Positions 3,763 through 38,790 of a stretch of 64,000 nt of DNA are shown piece after piece. The position numbers and the translations under genes were made by a program. The stretch lies in the NCBI GenBank assembly GCA_048938105.1, contig JBHLMN010000014.1:64001-128000 (forward strand), given 5' to 3'. The stretch's first letter is position 1. Every line of letters starts with the position of its first letter. This DNA comes from Promethearchaeota archaeon. Lineage in GTDB: Archaea > Asgardarchaeota > Heimdallarchaeia > Hodarchaeales > Hodarchaeaceae. The notes beneath the pieces are model-generated. The model made no database searches, was not told the origin of the DNA, and saw only the letters and a program-made list of their open reading frames with translations.

Positions 3763-4506
3763 ATGATGGTTACAGTTTTTCCTCTTCGGGATTTTCCTCT
3801 CATTAATCCAGGAGATGATCTTGAAAAGATTTTGATAACTGAATTACGAAAAATAGACTTGATTGATGACGATATTCTTGTCATTGCTCATACTATTGTA
3901 TCGAAAGCGGAAAATAATGTTTATAATCTTCATGAAGTGACTCCAAGCGCCTTTGCTCAACAAATCGCTGAATTACAAGATAAAGATCCAAGAAAAATTG
4001 AGGTTATCCTTCGTGAAAGCCGTGAAATCATTAGAATGAATGAACGAGTGTTGATAACTGCAACAAAACATGGCTTTGTCTGTGCTAATAGCGGAGTAGA
4101 TAAATCCAACATGCCTGGAGAAGCAGTCATATCCCTTCCTAATGACCCAGACCTATCAGCTCGGAGGATAAAAAAGCGTATTCTTTCAGAGTTGGGAAAG
4201 AATGTTGCTGTGATTATTTCTGACACGTTCGGCCGTCCTCTCCGAGTAGGAACTGTCAATGTTGCTATTGGTATCGCTGGAATTGATCCCATTGATGATT
4301 TAAGGGGACGAAAGGATCTTTTTGGCTATGAAATGCAATCCACATTTGTAGCTAGAGCAGATGAAGTTGCTGCCGCAGCAGGTTTAGTTATGGGCCAAAC
4401 AGATGAGGGAACACCTGCGATTATTGTCCGCGGGGTGGAATATACGCAAGCTGATGCTTATGCAACTAGTTTGAATAGAGATCCACAAACAGATGTGTTC
4501 CGTTAA
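3763..4506 (+). CDS. cofE: Coenzyme F420-0:gamma-glutamyl ligase
   Basis: Motifs IVSKAEN, ANSGVDKSN, IISDTFGRPLR, ADEVAAAA, GQTDEGTP. Confidence 0.93.
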   Translation: MMVTVFPLRDFPLINPGDDLEKILITELRKIDLIDDDILVIAHTIVSKAENNVYNLHEVTPSAFAQQIAELQDKDPRKIEVILRESREIIRMNERVLITATKHGFVCANSGVDKSNMPGEAVISLPNDPDLSARRIKKRILSELGKNVAVIISDTFGRPLRVGTVNVAIGIAGIDPIDDLRGRKDLFGYEMQSTFVARADEVAAAAGLVMGQTDEGTPAIIVRGVEYTQADAYATSLNRDPQTDVFR

Positions 4507-4670
4507 GCGAGTAACCCAGATTTTTCTAATGGCTATTTTTCCTACATTTCCTTGTTATAATAGGAAGTAAGTAGATTGAATATTTATTCTAATCCAGCAC
4601 ATAAGAATAATTTTCTTGAGGAATTTAATTTAAATTAGCAATAAAAATCGATGAATCAAACCAGATCTGT

Positions 4671-4708
4671 GCGCTGATAGTCTAGTCTGGTAGGACTCCA
4701 GCTTCATT
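4671..4708 (+). tRNA. 5' half of a split or giant-intron Gly-type tRNA
   Basis: GCGCTGA acceptor strand, complete D arm, anticodon-stem strand CCAGC, then TTCA-TTA forming one side of a BHB with 7393-7399. Confidence 0.8.
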
Positions 4709-4827
4709 AAAACTTACATAAAAAATTATTGAATGAGTCTCAATAATATGATTTGGACATGATGAGATAAAAAATACTATTAAATTGAAAAATCAAACAA
4801 AATAACACATACTTAATGAGCTTTAAT

Positions 4828-4901
4828 GCGCTGATAATCTAGTTTGGTTAGGATACTTGCCTCCCAAGCAAGCGACCCGGGTTCAAATCCCGGTCGGCGC
4901 A
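4828..4901 (+). tRNA. tRNA-Gly(CCC), intronless, nested between the two halves
   Basis: Full cloverleaf with CTTGC-CT-CCC-AA-GCAAG, followed by a T5 tract. Confidence 0.95.
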
Positions 4902-4968
4902 CTTTTTAAATAGTAGTAACATTTTAAGCTTAGAATTATTTATAACTAACCTTTTTGGAACTATATTT

Positions 4969-7116
4969 CTAGTAATATCCTCTCTTAGAGTGCTTCCATA
5001 GAGTATATAGATAAATATCTCGAAATAACGTTTCTTCGCCTGCATTAAAGTTTAAAATACTTATAAGTTCATTGATTTTCGTTCTTGTATTATTATCCAA
5101 TTCTCTCTTAAAACCAATAGCCTCTTCTCCATATTTATTTAGGATTTCGGTTACATGGGTCACTAAGATGTCAGAATTTTTGATATTTCGTTTGAATAAG
5201 CCATGACGAATCGCAGATGTAACTTCCATTAAACGGCCAAGCTTATAATCACTCTCTCCCCAATAACTGAGAATTAGGATGTTAAAATCCTTTTGTTCAT
5301 TAATAAAACAATTTGAAACACTTCCTTTTGGTATAAATTCAACTTGTAAATTCTTTACTTTACCTGATGTCAAGTCATAATTACCTAATGTTTTTAATTC
5401 ATCAAATAAGAAAGTAGAATCTCGAAGTTTTCCCTTCTTATTCCCTAATTCACGTATAAATTTCGTTTGAACGATTTCACAAGCTTTTTGATTAGCTCTA
5501 GTAATATTGTCAGGGAAAGTAATCAAATTCTTATGTGTTTTTATATATCCCCATTTTATTTCGGAAACTACTTTTAATGGGAGATCTAAGTTCCCTAACT
5601 GATTTCTTTCCTGTGTAAATAGTGTAATTCTAAGACGAATCTTTGGATCTTGAATGACAGCACCCACAAATGCTGGTAATCCTTTCGGATTATTTTCATC
5701 TAAAAATTCCTTGAGATTTCTATTAATTGGGCCAATATTCGGGAATTTCTCTGCCTGGTCAATGCTATAAATTATTCCAGAATAATGCAGATGCTTACTT
5801 TGTTTTCTTATTTTCTGAATTGCTCTTGCTAGATGCATTGGAGTTATTTTTGTTCTAACTTTGTTCCACCATTTATTAAAATCGGTTCTATCACTAGGAA
5901 ATTTATTCTGATTATTTATTTCTTTAGTGATAGCATCAATAAGTTTTGATCTATCCTGTAAATAAATTTTAGTGGAATTACAAATGTTCGGATAATAGAG
6001 TTCATCTGTAATAAAGATCACTCTTCTACCTTTATCTTCAAAAGATTTTACTATTTTTTGAACATTCTTATATCTAGATAGCCAATTTGGTTTTAAATCA
6101 TCAATATATTCCCAAAATTTAATTTCTAAGTAGTCATCAAGGAGTAACTCATCAAATTTAGGTCGATACACTTTTTTGAAGCCATTTCGAGCTTGCCATG
6201 ATTCTTCGGGATATCCAATGTCCATTGCTTTTAATTCAGCAATTATTTCGTCCATTAATGTGATTCTGATACTGCTTAGTTTTGGTTTATATGGATTGAT
6301 CGTTTCCATCAGGTAATCCATTATTTTTCTTCTTGCACCTGTTTTTTTAGCAAATAGAAAAGGCTTAATGCCATTCTTATTCCATGTAGATTTAGCATTA
6401 CGAATGTAATATGTTTCCCTTAACCCTGTAGATGGATTGACGATGTTAAGATCAATTAGACATTTTTTTCCAACAATTTTATTTCTAAGAATAAACCATT
6501 CTTCATAAAAGCCAGGAGTGAAACATGAGGTTCCAAGATCAATTTCAAAATCTTGAAACACTTTAAGACGTTCAAATTCGTCACTATTATAGCGAAATCT
6601 CCTTAGGGGAGCTCCATATATTTGTTGGATCTCGTTGTAAAGATACCACATATGAGATGTCGGAGCTATCTTTTCTTTCACAATCTCATTCCATTTCTGT
6701 GAAAACAGAAGGAAGTCTTTAAAATTCCCATGTTTTCGCCCCTGCTCTCCGTATTTCAGAGTTTCTATTAAATGTTTTTGATGAAACATATATTGAGTAT
6801 ATCTATGCTTGAATATTCTCATATTTACAAAGCTATTATCAATTTTTGAGGAGATCACATCATTATAATCATTAGCTTCCCCTTTTCGAATGAATTCTCT
6901 TATGATAGCGTATGACGAAGTAAATTCAGTACTAACAATTTCTTTGATAAGTGTTGGGTTATTCACCCACTTTCGCCATTTTCCACTTAAGTACATAGTA
7001 TGAGGAAGGATCAAATAGTCCAAAAGTTCAATAGTTTTCGTTTCTTCAGGGAATGGATCGTCAAAATACCCTGGTTGAGTTTTTTTTCTATCGTTAGTCA
7101 GCAATTGATCGTTCAC
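4969..7116 (-). CDS. 715-aa hypothetical protein with repeated PD-(D/E)XK-like nuclease motifs
   Basis: Long, very AT-rich ORF. Motifs YRPKFDELLLDDYLEIKFW, LGNLDLPLKVVSEIKWG and degenerate LGNYDLTSGKVKNLQVEF. Confidence 0.6.
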   Translation of the reverse strand: MNDQLLTNDRKKTQPGYFDDPFPEETKTIELLDYLILPHTMYLSGKWRKWVNNPTLIKEIVSTEFTSSYAIIREFIRKGEANDYNDVISSKIDNSFVNMRIFKHRYTQYMFHQKHLIETLKYGEQGRKHGNFKDFLLFSQKWNEIVKEKIAPTSHMWYLYNEIQQIYGAPLRRFRYNSDEFERLKVFQDFEIDLGTSCFTPGFYEEWFILRNKIVGKKCLIDLNIVNPSTGLRETYYIRNAKSTWNKNGIKPFLFAKKTGARRKIMDYLMETINPYKPKLSSIRITLMDEIIAELKAMDIGYPEESWQARNGFKKVYRPKFDELLLDDYLEIKFWEYIDDLKPNWLSRYKNVQKIVKSFEDKGRRVIFITDELYYPNICNSTKIYLQDRSKLIDAITKEINNQNKFPSDRTDFNKWWNKVRTKITPMHLARAIQKIRKQSKHLHYSGIIYSIDQAEKFPNIGPINRNLKEFLDENNPKGLPAFVGAVIQDPKIRLRITLFTQERNQLGNLDLPLKVVSEIKWGYIKTHKNLITFPDNITRANQKACEIVQTKFIRELGNKKGKLRDSTFLFDELKTLGNYDLTSGKVKNLQVEFIPKGSVSNCFINEQKDFNILILSYWGESDYKLGRLMEVTSAIRHGLFKRNIKNSDILVTHVTEILNKYGEEAIGFKRELDNNTRTKINELISILNFNAGEETLFRDIYLYTLWKHSKRGYY

Positions 7117-7398
7117 AATAAAGAATTCTCTTCCATCTTTTTTAAAACTATTATTCCCCTAATTACAAGTTATAAAATCTTTAATTCCTCTGTATTCGCC
7201 ATAATCTTAATGTTTTTTGATAATATTCCCTAGAGTGATGAGATATGGATTTTTTCAGAGCTTTATCATTTCACTTCATACTTTTGTCTTACTTTTATCT
7301 TCTTTTATTTCACTTAATTCTCTACTCTTAATTCTAGGACAAAAGGAGTTGTTATATTCATATCAAGATATATAAAACGATTCTAAGAACTTTGAAAT

Positions 7399-7462
7399 TG
7401 CTGGTGACCCGGGTTCAAAAACCATCCACTTTAGAGGATTGCTGGAAATCCCGGTCGGCGCA
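7399..7462 (+). tRNA. 3' half of the Gly-type tRNA, carrying a 29-nt BHB intron at 59/60 (7420-7448)
   Basis: GCTGG pairs with CCAGC of the 5' half; TGAC variable loop. Removing 7420-7448 (central helix TTCA/TGGA, bulges AA|A and AA|T) restores CCGGG-TTCAAAT-CCCGG-TCGGCGC-A. Confidence 0.85.
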
Positions 7463-7490
7463 TCCTCCTAGTTAATAAACTGATGCTACA

Positions 7491-7781
7491 ATGATAATCC
7501 GCTTAAAGTTTCTTGGATCATTACAATATGATTTAAAACAGCAGAATTTACCTTACCAGATTTCTTCGGAAAAATCTGTACAAGAAATTGTTTCAGAGCT
7601 TACACAGAATCCCCAATTCAAGGAACTGAAGAGTTTCTTTACTGAGTCTTTGGAGATAAAGCGATCCCTCTTGATTTTTATCAATGAACAAGAAATATCT
7701 GTACTGGATGGTATGAAATCTAAGGTAAAAGCGGAGGATATAATAGCCTTTATACCAGTCATTCATGGAGGAATATTCTGA
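7491..7781 (+). CDS. Urm1/SAMP (MoaD/ThiS-family) ubiquitin-like protein with a C-terminal GG-IF extension
   Basis: Beta-grasp pattern, LIFINEQEI...EDIIAFIPVIHGG followed by IF. Confidence 0.85.
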   Translation: MIIRLKFLGSLQYDLKQQNLPYQISSEKSVQEIVSELTQNPQFKELKSFFTESLEIKRSLLIFINEQEISVLDGMKSKVKAEDIIAFIPVIHGGIF

Positions 7782-7812: not shown

Positions 7813-8739
7813 ATGACGATAAATATGAAAGGACGTTCTTTATTAACGCTTAAGGATCTTTCGCCAGAGGAGATTCGCTTTCTGATTGATGAGGCAACGG
7901 AATTCAAAACTCACAGGTCACAATTTATACAGAGTCAACCGTTAAACGGAAAAACTTTAGGTATGATTTTTCAAAAACGCTCAACACGAACTCGTGTCTC
8001 GACAGAAACAGCTATGGTTGAATTAGGGGGACATGCCCTATTCTTAGGAAAGGATGACATTCAATTAGGTGTTAATGAATCTATACAAGATACAGCAAAA
8101 GTTTTGGGCCGAATGGTTTCTGGGATTCTAGCTCGTGTTTTTGATCATGCTGATGTAGAAATTCTTGCAAAATATTCTGGAGTTCCAGTAATTAATGCAC
8201 TTTCAGATCTATTCCATCCGCTTCAGGGATTAGCAGACCTAATGACAATCGAAGAGCATCTAGGGAAACTGAAAGGAGTAAATATTGCGTGGATAGGAGA
8301 TGGGAATAATGTATGCCATTCATTAATGATTGCTTCTATAAAGATGGGGATGAACATATGTATTGCAACACCTGAAGAATATGAACCAGATTCTACAGTC
8401 CTAGAATACTGTATGAATAATACATCGTCATCTGAACAGATAAAGGTGATCCATGATCCTATCATGGCCGCTAAAGACGCAAACGTAGTTGTAACGGATA
8501 CATTCATCTCCATGGGACAAGAATCAGAGAAGGAAGAGAAATTACGTAAATTTGAGGGTTATCAAGTTAATTCGCAGCTAGTTCATCACTCAGCCAAAGA
8601 TTTCATTTTCATGCATTGCCTTCCCCGTCATAAAGAGGAAGTTACTGATGAAATAATATATGGTAAGCACTCAGTTGTTTTCGATGAAGCTGAGAATCGT
8701 TTACATACGGTGGCAGCAGTATTGAAGAACGTCTTATGA
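7813..8739 (+). CDS. argF: Ornithine carbamoyltransferase
   Basis: STRTR, HPLQ, GDGNNV, SMG and HCLP motifs. Confidence 0.96.
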   Translation: MTINMKGRSLLTLKDLSPEEIRFLIDEATEFKTHRSQFIQSQPLNGKTLGMIFQKRSTRTRVSTETAMVELGGHALFLGKDDIQLGVNESIQDTAKVLGRMVSGILARVFDHADVEILAKYSGVPVINALSDLFHPLQGLADLMTIEEHLGKLKGVNIAWIGDGNNVCHSLMIASIKMGMNICIATPEEYEPDSTVLEYCMNNTSSSEQIKVIHDPIMAAKDANVVVTDTFISMGQESEKEEKLRKFEGYQVNSQLVHHSAKDFIFMHCLPRHKEEVTDEIIYGKHSVVFDEAENRLHTVAAVLKNVL

Positions 8740-27088: not shown

Positions 27089-27166
27089 GGATCCGTGGCT
27101 TAGCCAGGATAGAGCGGCGGCCTTCTAAGTCGCAGGTCGGGGGTTCAAATCCCCTCGGATCCGCCA
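27089..27166 (+). tRNA. tRNA-Arg(UCU) with encoded CCA
   Basis: GCGGC-CT-TCT-AA-GTCGC in a complete cloverleaf. Confidence 0.95.
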
Positions 27167-27185
27167 TATCTGCTTTATTGGAAAT

Positions 27186-27289
27186 GGACTCGTGGCTTAG
27201 CTTGGATAGAGCATCTGCCTCCTATTTCTAAATCTATATAAGTTGAAAGAGATAGCAGAGGGTCGGGGGTTCAAATCCCCCCGAGTCCG
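27186..27289 (+). tRNA. tRNA-Arg(CCU) with canonical 37/38 intron (27225-27253)
   Basis: TCTGC-CT-CCT-A|29 nt|A-GCAGA; relaxed BHB. Confidence 0.9.
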
Positions 27290-27305
27290 TTTGGAATCGT
27301 TTCAT

Positions 27306-27408
27306 GGGCCCTTGGCTTAGCTTGGATAGAGCGCTTGCCTCCGGAGTAAAAGATTGGTTTCCCAAATATTCTCTACAGAGGTCGTGAGTTCGAATCTCAC
27401 AGGGCCCG
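27306..27408 (+). tRNA. tRNA-Arg(CCG) with non-canonical intron at 41/42 (27349-27376)
   Basis: Central helix GGAG/CTCT, bulges TA|A and AC|A. Removal restores the CTTGC/GTAAG anticodon stem. Confidence 0.85.
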
Positions 27409-36507: not shown

Positions 36508-37527
36508 TCATTTTAATATCAATAGAATACGAGTTGTCCAATCGTGGATACGAGCATTTGGTTTCCTCCAACTAGATGACAATCTTATAATTCTATTAGT
36601 TGATGGAACGTTTCCAAAATCCCAAAGCCCATTCTTAGTTTGGTTGTCCCAAAACCACTCAAGAAGCTCCTCAACATGAGATTTCCAGCTAGGATACGGT
36701 TTTAAAATCTCAAGGGATCTCAACCACCTTGTGAAAGTATTAGTTCCTACTAAATCATTAGGAGAAGATCTTAGATCCACATTTAAGTAACCAATTCCTT
36801 GATTCCATACAAATCTGAAAAATGCTTTTTCTAACTCTGGATTTAACTTATAAATTTGAGAACAGATTAGATTTACAGTGTAAACATCATTTATTGTGAG
36901 TTCTTTCCCTTCCTTTATTCTTTTTTTAAATCGGGCCGAGAATTCGTCATAGTTAATCTGTAGTATTTCTAGAAACGCAGAAATCTGTTTTTGTGTATTA
37001 TATGAATTACTAGGGAAGGATCTTTGTATTATTTTAGACCATAAATCAAAATAATCATTAAGGATTGGATGATTAGGGTTTATTTCAGCTAAAGAAACCG
37101 CAACAATTTTCTTAATAAAACAATCCCAAACATTTTGACCTAGACCTTTTGGAACAATATCTCGTGGTTTTACTGAATTGTTTAGAATTCCAACGATATA
37201 GTCGGTTACTTTTTGAATGATAGGATGAGTATCATCAAGACCTAGATTAATGGATCTACTAACACCCACTTCAGTGGTAGGAACTTTCTGTTTAAGGGCA
37301 GTGTCTTCAGTGTGAAATCTTCCCCAGCTCCCATCCTCCCATTGGTCATTTCTAAGTATTTGTACCCATTTATTTTCTTCTAATCTTGATTCTGCTTCAA
37401 TTAGTTCAGGATCGTTTCTATTCTTTCTTAATATATCGCGTAATAATCTAACTTGAACAGCTGGATCAGGACTATCTTCAAGGATTCTTTCTGCGATATT
37501 TTGAATTTCTCTCTTTCCCTTTGACAT
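36508..37527 (-). CDS. Hypothetical protein with QW/prenyltransferase-like repeats
   Basis: DQWEDGSWG and NQTKNGLWDF. Confidence 0.65.
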   Translation of the reverse strand: MSKGKREIQNIAERILEDSPDPAVQVRLLRDILRKNRNDPELIEAESRLEENKWVQILRNDQWEDGSWGRFHTEDTALKQKVPTTEVGVSRSINLGLDDTHPIIQKVTDYIVGILNNSVKPRDIVPKGLGQNVWDCFIKKIVAVSLAEINPNHPILNDYFDLWSKIIQRSFPSNSYNTQKQISAFLEILQINYDEFSARFKKRIKEGKELTINDVYTVNLICSQIYKLNPELEKAFFRFVWNQGIGYLNVDLRSSPNDLVGTNTFTRWLRSLEILKPYPSWKSHVEELLEWFWDNQTKNGLWDFGNVPSTNRIIRLSSSWRKPNARIHDWTTRILLILK

Positions 37528-37845
37528 AAATCCATCTCCGAATTAGAATACCTGAATAGTAAATATAGTTACAATTCTTTTAGTGAGTAATAAATAGAAA
37601 TAAGATTGTTCCTATATCAACTTATCTTCGGAAGAAGTCGTTGGTTAGGTTATGAAAAGTAAACACCAAGATTTTTATCTATGATTTTCCCAATTGTTTG
37701 ATTACGACATTCTTTTCATTATTATCAGTATCATAAAGTTGATGATATTATGAGAGTTCTACAAATCGCGTTATAGAAATGAGTTTCCTCATTTTTGCCA
37801 TTAAATTAAAGTTTAAAACCTTCAAATCTGACTGATGGCCTCATT

Positions 37846-38790
37846 ATGATTCTTTTAACTCCTGAAACTTTAGATGACGTGTCTAATCTTTTAGATGAGT
37901 ATGGTCAATTTATACAGGAACAGCTTGGTATTCCATCATTTCCTGTCAAAGAAAGGTTTAAGACTTTTCTTAAGGAAAGAAATGACCGAATTTTCGCCTT
38001 TTATGATAATAATCACGTTCCTATTGGCATAGCAAGGACATCAACTGAGAAGGGGAATCCTGATGAAGTCTATATTATGGAATTTTATTGTTCAGAAAAA
38101 GGTAAAGACAAGGGAAGCTTAGAGATAAACCTTTTTGATGCAGTTTTCAATCAATTAAAGGATAACCATACAATTATAAGAGTGGCTGGAATGCCACTTT
38201 CATCCGATTTAAGAAATCATATTACATCACGCAATTTTACAAGATTTGATCGTTGGAAAATGTCAATTGACAAATCAACTGTTCAATCATTATCTAAACT
38301 TAATTTACCATTAAATTACGCTTTTGCTAGATGGAATGATGAGTATACAGAGCCAATAATCGAAGTGATTACCAATTATAACGATCAAAATGTTGATAAT
38401 ATACTATTTCCATATTTCAAGACCGTTGACACTGTTAAGGCATTTATTGAAGATTTAACTAAGAATCGGTGGGGGAAATTTAAAACAAATTTAACCAGTA
38501 TTCTGACACATAACGGGGAATTAATAGGAGTTTGTTTCCTTACGGTATTAGACAATGGTAAAGGGTATCTTCCAGATATTGGAATTCTTAAGACTTATCA
38601 AGGAAAAGGACTGGGAAAAACATTACTCATCCACAGTTTAAAATATTATATGGAAGTACAGGATAGTAATGAGATCGAATTAGATGTTACTCTGAAAAAT
38701 ACAGTTGCACTTAACTTATATAAATCCTTAGGATTCCGATTTAAACGAGAATATACAGTTTTCGTTTGGAACGAGAACGATCCCACTTAA
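37846..38790 (+). CDS. Tandem GNAT acetyltransferase
   Basis: YQGKGLGKTL and NTVALNLYKSLGF motifs. Confidence 0.88.
   Translation: MILLTPETLDDVSNLLDEYGQFIQEQLGIPSFPVKERFKTFLKERNDRIFAFYDNNHVPIGIARTSTEKGNPDEVYIMEFYCSEKGKDKGSLEINLFDAVFNQLKDNHTIIRVAGMPLSSDLRNHITSRNFTRFDRWKMSIDKSTVQSLSKLNLPLNYAFARWNDEYTEPIIEVITNYNDQNVDNILFPYFKTVDTVKAFIEDLTKNRWGKFKTNLTSILTHNGELIGVCFLTVLDNGKGYLPDIGILKTYQGKGLGKTLLIHSLKYYMEVQDSNEIELDVTLKNTVALNLYKSLGFRFKREYTVFVWNENDPT

Follow-up and report, generated by a model that had tools for sequence, protein, structure and literature searches.

In cyanobacteria, the anticodon loop of the gene for transfer RNA (tRNA)-fMet is occupied by a group I intron whose homing endonuclease, I-Ssp6803I, is of the PD-(D/E)XK type. 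Among tRNA genes, mobile DNA also takes the form of free-standing homing endonuclease genes, such as that for SegB in a tRNA cluster of phage T4 (PMC2330249), and archaeal tRNA genes can be interrupted by bulge-helix-bulge (BHB) introns or split into separate halves, as in Nanoarchaeum and Caldivirga (reviewed in PMC4033280; PMC4390854). The closest published archaeal counterpart of the locus described here is the tRNA-Thr(GGU) locus of Caldiarchaeum subterraneum, where a 1.8-kb insert that encodes a predicted recombinase separates the full gene from a 5′ tRNA fragment upstream of it (Sugahara et al. 2012; PMC3293823). Here we analyze a stretch of 64,000 nucleotides (nt), hereafter the window, from the genome of a Promethearchaeota archaeon of the Hodarchaeales (GCA_048938105.1; contig JBHLMN010000014.1, positions 64,001–128,000), in which the two halves of a tRNA-Gly(CCC) gene are separated by an insert, here called the Gly cassette, that contains an intact tRNA-Gly(CCC) gene and a single long open reading frame (ORF). 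All positions are those of the window; the genome is denoted G000, and other G and L numbers refer to genomes and loci of relatives. Judging from comparative sequence analysis, this arrangement probably arose when a mobile cassette carrying a replacement tRNA and a likely mobility ORF broke the resident tRNA-Gly(CCC) gene, the BHB-like pairing at the junctions being incidental. The locus would thus represent a compact and comparatively well-documented case in which a mobile cassette breaks a gene and replaces it, and it comes from the archaea most closely related to eukaryotes.

Like the Caldiarchaeum locus and archaeal integrative elements in general, the locus consists of about 2 kb of foreign DNA in a tRNA gene, placed between a tRNA fragment and a complete gene, in a state that varies between close relatives; inserts of the same ORF family in tRNA-Ser genes (see below) look just like the Caldiarchaeum locus, with a 5′ fragment approximately 2 kb upstream of the full gene. 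Unlike archaeal integrative elements, the Gly cassette encodes no protein of an integrase or other known recombinase family and shows no evident attachment (att) repeat in G000; it carries an entire tRNA gene instead of the displaced part and leaves both halves of its target in place. With free-standing homing endonucleases such as SegB it shares the character of a lone selfish gene that resides among tRNA genes without an intron or intein, is patchily distributed and has a history unlike that of its host. SegB, in contrast, is a phage GIY-YIG enzyme that does not break and replace, whereas the cassette protein, a presumed DNA-cutting enzyme, falls by sequence into no known homing endonuclease family. 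The likeness to the I-Ssp6803I element lies in the occupation of a tRNA anticodon loop and in a candidate restriction-type nuclease (a fold match of only Z 4.6), but that intron restores its tRNA by self-splicing, whereas the Gly cassette lacks a ribozyme and restores the tRNA with a second gene. Finally, as in BHB introns and split tRNAs, there are two same-strand pieces with pairing stems, between which a 3-4-3 BHB can be drawn at position 37/38, in a genus that truly has BHB introns (at 59/60); what sets it apart from those systems is a non-conserved junction helix, loop letters foreign to the tRNA, the loss of a half from orthologous copies and the presence of a replacement gene. The locus probably belongs to the known class of tRNA-gene-targeting mobile DNA, and its ORF to an undescribed protein family.

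Disruption of the tRNA-Gly(CCC) gene at the cofE-urm1 locus

The 5′ remnant of the resident gene (4671–4702, + strand) comprises the 5′ strand of the acceptor stem (GCGCTGA), the D arm and the 5′ strand of the anticodon stem (CCAGC), and the 3′ remnant (7400–7462, +) comprises the opposite anticodon-stem strand (GCTGG), the variable region, the T arm, the acceptor strand TCGGCGC and A73. A first-pass annotation, made from the sequence alone, had recognized these pieces as matching parts of one tRNA, and all seven acceptor-stem pairs (one of them G-U) and all five anticodon-stem pairs are indeed formed; it had overlooked a 29-nt insert in the T loop of the 3′ piece (7420–7448, +), which divides the latter into exons at 7400–7419 and 7449–7462. 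The halves are flanked on the left by cofE, encoding F420-0:gamma-glutamyl ligase (3763–4506, +; Pfam PF01996, E = 1e-78), and on the right by a urm1-like gene (7491–7781, +; PF09138, E = 1e-9), both of which are syntenic in the relatives, and, according to a DNA search against 40 relatives, the cofE-urm1 adjacency holds throughout the genus. As the annotation had proposed, we compared this locus across the genus for an empty allele, and found one in seven relatives (G007, G009, G010, G011, G012, G014 and G020), each with a contiguous tRNA-Gly(CCC) gene with the anticodon loop CTCCCAA between cofE and urm1. All seven genes contain an intron of 28–40 nt at the T-loop position 59/60, which is the position of the 29-nt insert in the window, an intron that we consider inherited. 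The 5′ remnant is identical to nt 1–32 of the G007 gene at 32 of 32 positions and the 3′ exons at 34 of 34, so that the match extends over 66 of 66 exon positions. Because seven relatives carry a contiguous tRNA-Gly(CCC) gene with the same T-loop intron at this very place, the comparison identifies the halves as the resident gene of the cofE-urm1 locus. Where this gene has its 7-nt loop, the window has the 2697-nt cassette (4703–7399), which is absent from the seven relatives and present in G003 and G008/L037.

In the same comparison with G007, the 80 nt upstream of the 5′ half are 77% identical and the T-loop intron differs at 6 of its 29 positions. The perfect exon match despite 23% spacer divergence suggests that the break occurred recently in the G000 lineage, and gene conversion from the near-identical tRNA-Gly(UCC) gene and from the nested gene could have contributed to the exon identity.

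The T-loop intron forms a BHB of canonical geometry, in which the T stem serves as the outer helix, T54–A57 (TTCA) provides one strand of a 4-bp TTCA/TGGA helix, and two 3-nt bulges are present. RNAalifold analysis of the seven empty-site genes recovered the T stem, the 4-bp helix (TTCA/TGAA or TGGA) and a 3-nt bulge, and the inner hairpin of the intron varies in sequence but covaries so that its pairing is kept (L008–L012, L015 and L017; window positions 7409–7454). Introns are found in many tRNA genes of this organism, and the GC content at the locus is approximately 30–35%. A contig from a mangrove sample (metagenome run X5) has the same tRNA-Gly(CCC) exon letters as those at 4671–4702 and 7400–7419 within other flanks, and joins these exons by CTCCCA, a 20-nt canonical 37/38 intron and an A; set against the 59/60 intron of the genus, this intron shows that the intron position in tRNA-Gly(CCC) varies among related organisms.

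The window lies on a 163-kb contig of a genome bin of 5.85 Mb. Both junctions of the cassette are bridged by independent metagenome contigs (X2 record 1, covering 4560–4741, and X2 record 7, covering 7257–7484), and a contig from a separate study (X3 record 16) spans 7179–7437 and crosses the right junction. Since contigs from other samples and from another study cross both junctions, misassembly is unlikely.

Contents of the cassette

The intact tRNA-Gly(CCC) gene and the antisense ORF that the first-pass annotation had placed between the halves both hold up. The tRNA gene (4828–4902, +) is called by ARAGORN and scores 65.6 bits against Rfam, and the frame of the 715-amino-acid (aa) ORF is open over 4969–7116 (− strand; 711 aa from an alternative start); no further genes were found in the cassette. 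The nested tRNA gene is intron-less, differs from the resident tRNA in two base pairs of the anticodon stem (CTTGC/GCAAG), is identical in G003 and differs by 1 nt in the G008-type copy. A genome-wide DNA search and tRNA scans gave no other intact tRNA-Gly(CCC) gene, only tRNA-Gly(GCC) and tRNA-Gly(UCC) being encoded elsewhere; the host would therefore depend on the tRNA of the cassette, and, the nested gene being its only tRNA-Gly(CCC), loss of the cassette would be costly, an addiction-like arrangement for which we use the term break-and-replace. A tRNA-Gly(CCC) with a 2136-nt intron proposed by ARAGORN in long-intron mode on contig C52 (G000:C52:469407-471633) was discarded as a false positive, a poor cloverleaf laid across coding sequence.

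Alignment of the G000 and G003 cassettes reveals an A/T-rich block at 4764–4779 (+; GATAAAAAATACTA) that is invariant between the two within a spacer that is otherwise approximately 60–70% identical; located some 50–65 nt 5′ of the nested tRNA gene, it is a candidate promoter. At the right end of the cassette, a TATA-like block at 7352–7376 (+; ATATCAAGATATATAA) is kept in the G000, G003 and G008 cassettes. These boxes, along with a T5 tract after 4901, had been taken by the first-pass annotation to favor separate transcripts. A simpler reading is that the block may direct outward transcription of the 3′ remnant and the displaced urm1-pyrB genes, because urm1 starts 28 nt past the 3′ end of the tRNA in the empty-site relatives, as it does in the window, a gap too short to accommodate a separate promoter. 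The same spacing suggests that the tRNA was ancestrally co-transcribed with urm1-pyrB.

Patchy distribution and horizontal spread

The maximum likelihood tree of the hosts, built from six flanking genes (1279 columns), has the strongly supported topology (G000,(G003,G007)), with G008 outside a group that includes empty-site genomes. The same site is thus filled in G000, G003 and G008 and empty in the seven others, including G007, the sister of G003; forcing the three insert-bearers into a clade costs 105.5 log-likelihood units (approximately unbiased test, AU, p = 3.6e-6). Synonymous divergence (dS) provides a second line of evidence. Between G000 and G008, dS is 0.63 for the ORF and 0.92 for the host flanks; between G003 and G008, the values are 0.79 and 0.80, and between G000 and G003, 1.05 and 0.55, such that the order of the ORF distances is the reverse of that of the flank distances and no single rate factor fits both. 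Because the divergence of the ORF contradicts that of the hosts, these data point to horizontal spread into the same gene, which the cassette would have entered in two or three lineages at least. The suggestion of the first-pass annotation that a mobile element occupies a tRNA anticodon loop and carries a replacement tRNA agrees with the empty sites, with the patchy, non-clade distribution, with the incongruent divergence of the ORF and with the paralogous inserts described in the next section.

The three copies differ in the structure of their junctions, which is compatible either with separate insertions or with a duplicated target that decayed differently in each. In G003, the left junction weakly resembles the tRNA from the 3′ anticodon strand through the T loop, a likeness equaled by 41 of 2000 shuffled sequences in a comparison that was made post hoc. 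Co-conversion of the flanks from a G008-like donor found no support, the urm1 gene of G000 being closer to those of G003 and G007 than to that of G008. In searches for more copies, a scan of genome contigs for the ORF gave only G003, viral contigs gave none, and a scan of metagenomes by the nested-tRNA pattern gave only two contigs, both of the G003 type. The G008-type cassette on the European Nucleotide Archive (ENA) contig L037 ends at 8340–8359 in the Illumina adapter-like sequence GCTCTTCCGATCT, its left junction being lost.

Paralogous inserts at other tRNA genes

Single-ORF inserts of the same family, 1.8–2.3 kb in length, reside inside tRNA-Ser(CGA) genes, after nt 16, in G002, G010, G011 and G019 (L023 1262–3632; L024 1207–3785; G002:C80:63511–65568; G019:C122:9–2299), and each of them duplicates 14–21 nt of the tRNA-Ser 5′ end. 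In G010 and G011, the paralog is encoded on the antisense strand and separates tRNA-Leu(CAG) from a tRNA-Ser(CGA) with two introns, with a 16–17-nt copy of the tRNA-Ser 5′ end beyond the far side of the ORF. The Leu-Ser tandem is uninterrupted in 12 genomes, including G000 (contig C18), and the Ser insert is also patchy, given that G009, a relative of G011, is empty. A second paralog in G000 is found on contig C9 (ORF 37050–38633; locus L027 1220–3297, equivalent to G000:C9:36769–38846), 130 nt from a multi-intron tRNA of about 140 nt on the same strand; relative to G009, G011 and G014, which have only 335–490 nt, the tRNA included, between the same flanks, this insert amounts to approximately 2.3 kb. 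Two of the four distant metagenome members of the family have a tRNA within 460 nt, and no tRNA fragments were found beside the distant members L054 and L055. Altogether, about 5 of 10 distinct family loci adjoin tRNA genes, whereas, by our own estimate, a few percent would be expected by chance. Because the inserts at different tRNA genes share only the ORF, the ORF is the best candidate for the determinant of mobility.

The ORF family

The ORF is open in three lineages with 61–69% aa identity and dN/dS values (ratios of nonsynonymous to synonymous divergence) of 0.24–0.29, which indicates that it is under purifying selection. Its sequence has no match in Pfam, NCBIfam, PHROGs or PADLOC, or in PDB by phmmer; no usable match was obtained in the ESM Atlas, and the profile of its C-terminal domain found nothing significant in PDB or Pfam. 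The only cassette ORF likewise matches no tyrosine or serine recombinase or integrase family. A profile search of 1.84 billion proteins retrieved approximately 60 family representatives, some of them fused into proteins of up to 3124 aa that are equally devoid of Pfam domains, and one family member matches Pfam PDDEXK_10 with an E value of 0.16 only. Among the 60 relatives searched, matches are confined to the genus.

A C-terminal alpha/beta domain (residues ~465–622; window positions 5251–5724, −) may have a PD-(D/E)XK-type nuclease core. In an alignment of 24 C-terminal domains, a motif of the form P535-D536 … E547-x-x-Q550-x-K552 is apparent, with D536 and K552 invariant, P535, E547 and Q550 conserved in at least 90% of the sequences, and R494, K575 and W619 nearly invariant. 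AlphaFold2 (AF2) models have a predicted local distance difference test score (pLDDT) of 74 for the whole protein and 83 for the C-terminal domain; in the domain model, D536 opens one strand and Q550-x-K552 lies in the next, with a helix before and a helix and strand after, a predicted layout that is that of PD-(D/E)XK nucleases. The fold matches are weak and lie within the aligner's stated chance range, namely Hjc/Hje (Z 5.0–5.4), tRNA-splicing endonuclease subunits (EndA; Z 4.4–5.0) and I-Ssp6803I (2ost; Z 4.6). The C-terminal helices match a topoisomerase IB fragment at Z 7.9 only, and the family alignment shows neither a conserved Tyr nor a conserved His. The term nuclease-like used by the first-pass annotation is therefore consistent with the motif and with the modeled topology, but finds no significant match in the libraries, and we regard a nuclease identity as a plausible hypothesis. 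Whatever its activity, this orphan family is associated with tRNA genes and lends itself to direct assays of site-specific DNA cutting or recombination.

A possible mechanism of break-and-replace

The following scenario would account for the above observations. The ORF protein, presumably a recombinase or DNA endonuclease directed at tRNA genes and built on a PD-(D/E)XK-like core, would recognize and break a tRNA gene, and the cassette would be copied or joined into the break; at the Gly locus, the anticodon loop is replaced in this way and the resident gene is dead. The element would then have to supply what the host needs for viability, that is, the first 16 nt in the case of tRNA-Ser and a whole gene in the case of tRNA-Gly(CCC). 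The altered anticodon stem and the missing intron of the nested gene could shield it from the enzyme, and the TATA-like block at the right end may now drive urm1-pyrB. A bolder proposal, to which we assign somewhat less than an even chance, is that the ORF is the founding member of an undescribed class of tRNA-gene-specific DNA endonucleases or recombinases, and that a one-gene selfish element spreads in Hodarchaeales by destroying a tRNA gene and supplying what it has destroyed. If this is true, the element would be costly to lose and would bring about tRNA intron turnover as a by-product, an intron-bearing gene giving way to an intron-less one. Apart from this proposal, the locus illustrates a concrete route for tRNA intron loss and for the scattering of tRNA fragments, the process addressed by models of the evolution of disrupted tRNAs (PMC3293823; PMC4390854).

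Alternative explanations

Several observations weigh against a cassette mobilized by its own ORF. The nuclease assignment amounts to a short motif and the low-scoring fold matches listed above; Foldseek searches with the whole-protein and domain models gave no match at E ≤ 0.001, and VIA-align gave only Z < 8. No tRNA is found nearby at 5 of the approximately 10 family loci examined. Unlike the Ser cassettes, the Gly cassette has no convincing terminal repeats or target duplication in the window, so that the two need not share a single mechanism. The right non-coding arm is 67–74% identical among the three copies, with G003 and G008 as the closest pair (74%), which is not the relationship seen in the ORF, and the element's own history thus appears to be mosaic or star-like. 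The perfect conservation of the halves in G000 could also mean that they have retained a function, and the contamination of the genome bin is estimated at 7%.

With these points in mind, the strongest competing explanation, which we nevertheless consider unlikely, is that a larger integrative element of viral or plasmid origin left the cassette behind as a decayed remnant or carried it as a cargo module, the integrase being encoded elsewhere or since lost, with the ORF as a passenger, for example, one with a defense function. The 14–21-nt duplication of the tRNA 5′ end by the Ser inserts is the classical signature of recombination at an att core, and the left junction of G003 hints at such a duplicated core, within the limits of the post hoc shuffling test. 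Archaeal integrases usually target tRNA genes, the 1.8-kb insert at the Caldiarchaeum tRNA-Thr gene contains a predicted recombinase (PMC3293823), and the case for a nuclease encoded by the ORF itself is weak. A passenger role is, however, difficult to square with inserts at three different tRNA targets, each of 1.8–2.7 kb, that have nothing but the ORF family in common, or with an ORF that is open under purifying selection in every lineage; moreover, the cassette contains no integrase family match and the scan of viral contigs produced no relative.

Very unlikely, in our estimate, is a single ancient insertion followed by vertical descent, in which the cassette is immobile and the empty sites were restored by homologous recombination with an intact allele. 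Such a history would account for the presence of every copy in the same gene and in the same orientation and for the roughly equal identities of the right non-coding arm, and unequal losses from a single ancestral structure with a duplicated target segment could account for the differences between the junctions. It would require, however, that an intron-bearing gene was independently restored several times (in G007, in G009/G011/G014, in G012, in G010 and in G020). Nor does it fit the dS values, because the ORF distance between G000 and G003 is twice that of the host whereas the distance between G000 and G008 is lower than that of the host, and no single scaling fits; the identity of the exon remnants, set against that of the spacer, argues for a recent break in the G000 lineage.

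The remaining possibility is that the broken gene is spliced. The first-pass annotation offered three readings of the locus that involve splicing, namely a giant cis intron, a trans-spliced split tRNA and a mobile element that makes itself spliceable, based on a BHB at the anticodon arm. The letters of this structure are present, with TTCA (4703–4706) facing TGAA (7393–7396) and bulges TTA and ATT, but the structure itself lacks support, as it is neither the predicted fold nor conserved. The inner helix at the junctions consists of 2+4 A/T-rich pairs, and random sequence of this base composition would give a fixed-register 4-bp match in approximately 0.6–1.4% of cases (our own estimate); when ViennaRNA was applied to the two halves together and to a mini-substrate, the proposed BHB was not chosen as the minimum free energy structure. 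Joining of 4671–4708, 7399–7419 and 7449–7462 yields a 73-nt cloverleaf that ARAGORN reads as tRNA-Met(CAT), but the would-be spliced loop, TTCATTT, contains CAU followed by U37 and U38 on a glycine tRNA body and does not restore the ancestral CTCCCAA. Because a spliceable element would need to keep the exon letters CTCCCA/A, which are now gone, a reliance on splicing is unsupported.

The other copies of the cassette tell the same story. The G003 copy has lost the 3′ half and shows CCAG-ATTTCTGG at its 5′ junction, whereas in G008 the TGAA is aligned with TGGA, the anticodon-stem strand GCTGG is changed and the 3′ remnant has 3 changes in 20 nt. The outer halves are thus decayed in these relatives and the TTCA/TGAA pairing is not conserved, an outcome that the annotation itself had named as one that would speak against splicing. 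Because both the junction BHB and the outer gene decay in G003 and G008, neither appears to be functionally required, and we consider the BHB-like pairing at the junctions incidental; the locus can be accounted for without splicing over the 2.7 kb. The lost loop, the CAU/U37 product and the decayed copies all speak against a giant cis intron, and an element that makes itself spliceable is no better served, its exon-side loop letters being gone and its junction helix decaying in both other copies. Known split tRNAs have long complementary leaders. The complementarity of leader and trailer is far weaker here, and this, together with the decay of the halves in orthologous copies, speaks against trans-splicing; we reject the 2.7-kb spliced intron and the split tRNA alike, given the lost loop, the unpredicted helix, the absence of the 3′ half from G003 and the spoiled stem of G008.

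That the outer gene is nevertheless still used strikes us as scarcely credible. Its halves would be contained in a single 2.8-kb precursor or in two separate transcripts, would pair through the BHB-like junction and would be joined by splicing endonuclease and ligase into a glycine-bodied tRNA with a CAU anticodon. In favor of this reading, neither half is damaged and all 66 exon positions agree with a functional orthologue, the stems and junction letters suit the canonical 37/38 register, removal of both inserts yields the ARAGORN cloverleaf, the genus splices a non-canonical T-loop BHB, which implies a permissive endonuclease, and TATA-like boxes precede the 3′ half. Against it, CTCCCAA would not be regained and the product would be left with a non-cognate anticodon and with U37/U38, its junction helix is not the predicted fold and has six A/T-rich inner pairs in place of long leaders, the state of the G003 and G008 copies shows that the arrangement is not under selection across copies, and the replacement tRNA renders the outer gene redundant. 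What could have passed in an Asgard archaeon for a new split tRNA, or for an archaeal intron of record size, is thus a tempting false positive, best read as a gene broken by a mobile cassette, and a warning that programs for the detection of split tRNAs will call such remnants split genes.

The cassette starts with TTCA and three further nt (4703–4709) and ends with TGAA and three further nt (7393–7399), the same letters as in the helix and bulge layout of the T-loop BHB in the relatives. This could be a coincidence or a trace of an origin inside a T-loop intron; the likeness of the left junction in the window to the T loop and its intron is not significant (762 of 2000 shuffles).

Other features of the window

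Two further regions of the window contain non-coding RNA genes. On the − strand, at 696–2195, a match to the Rfam family HEARO (IscB omega-RNA; 1969–2195, 108.8 bits) is followed on its 3′ side by a 123-aa ORF with an RRXRR/RuvC-N domain (1516–1887) and a 259-aa HNH ORF (696–1475), which, by their sequences, look like an IscB gene split into two frames. On the + strand, at 27089–27408, three tRNA genes are arranged in tandem, two of which, of about 103 nt each and with introns, were found by Rfam and missed by ARAGORN.

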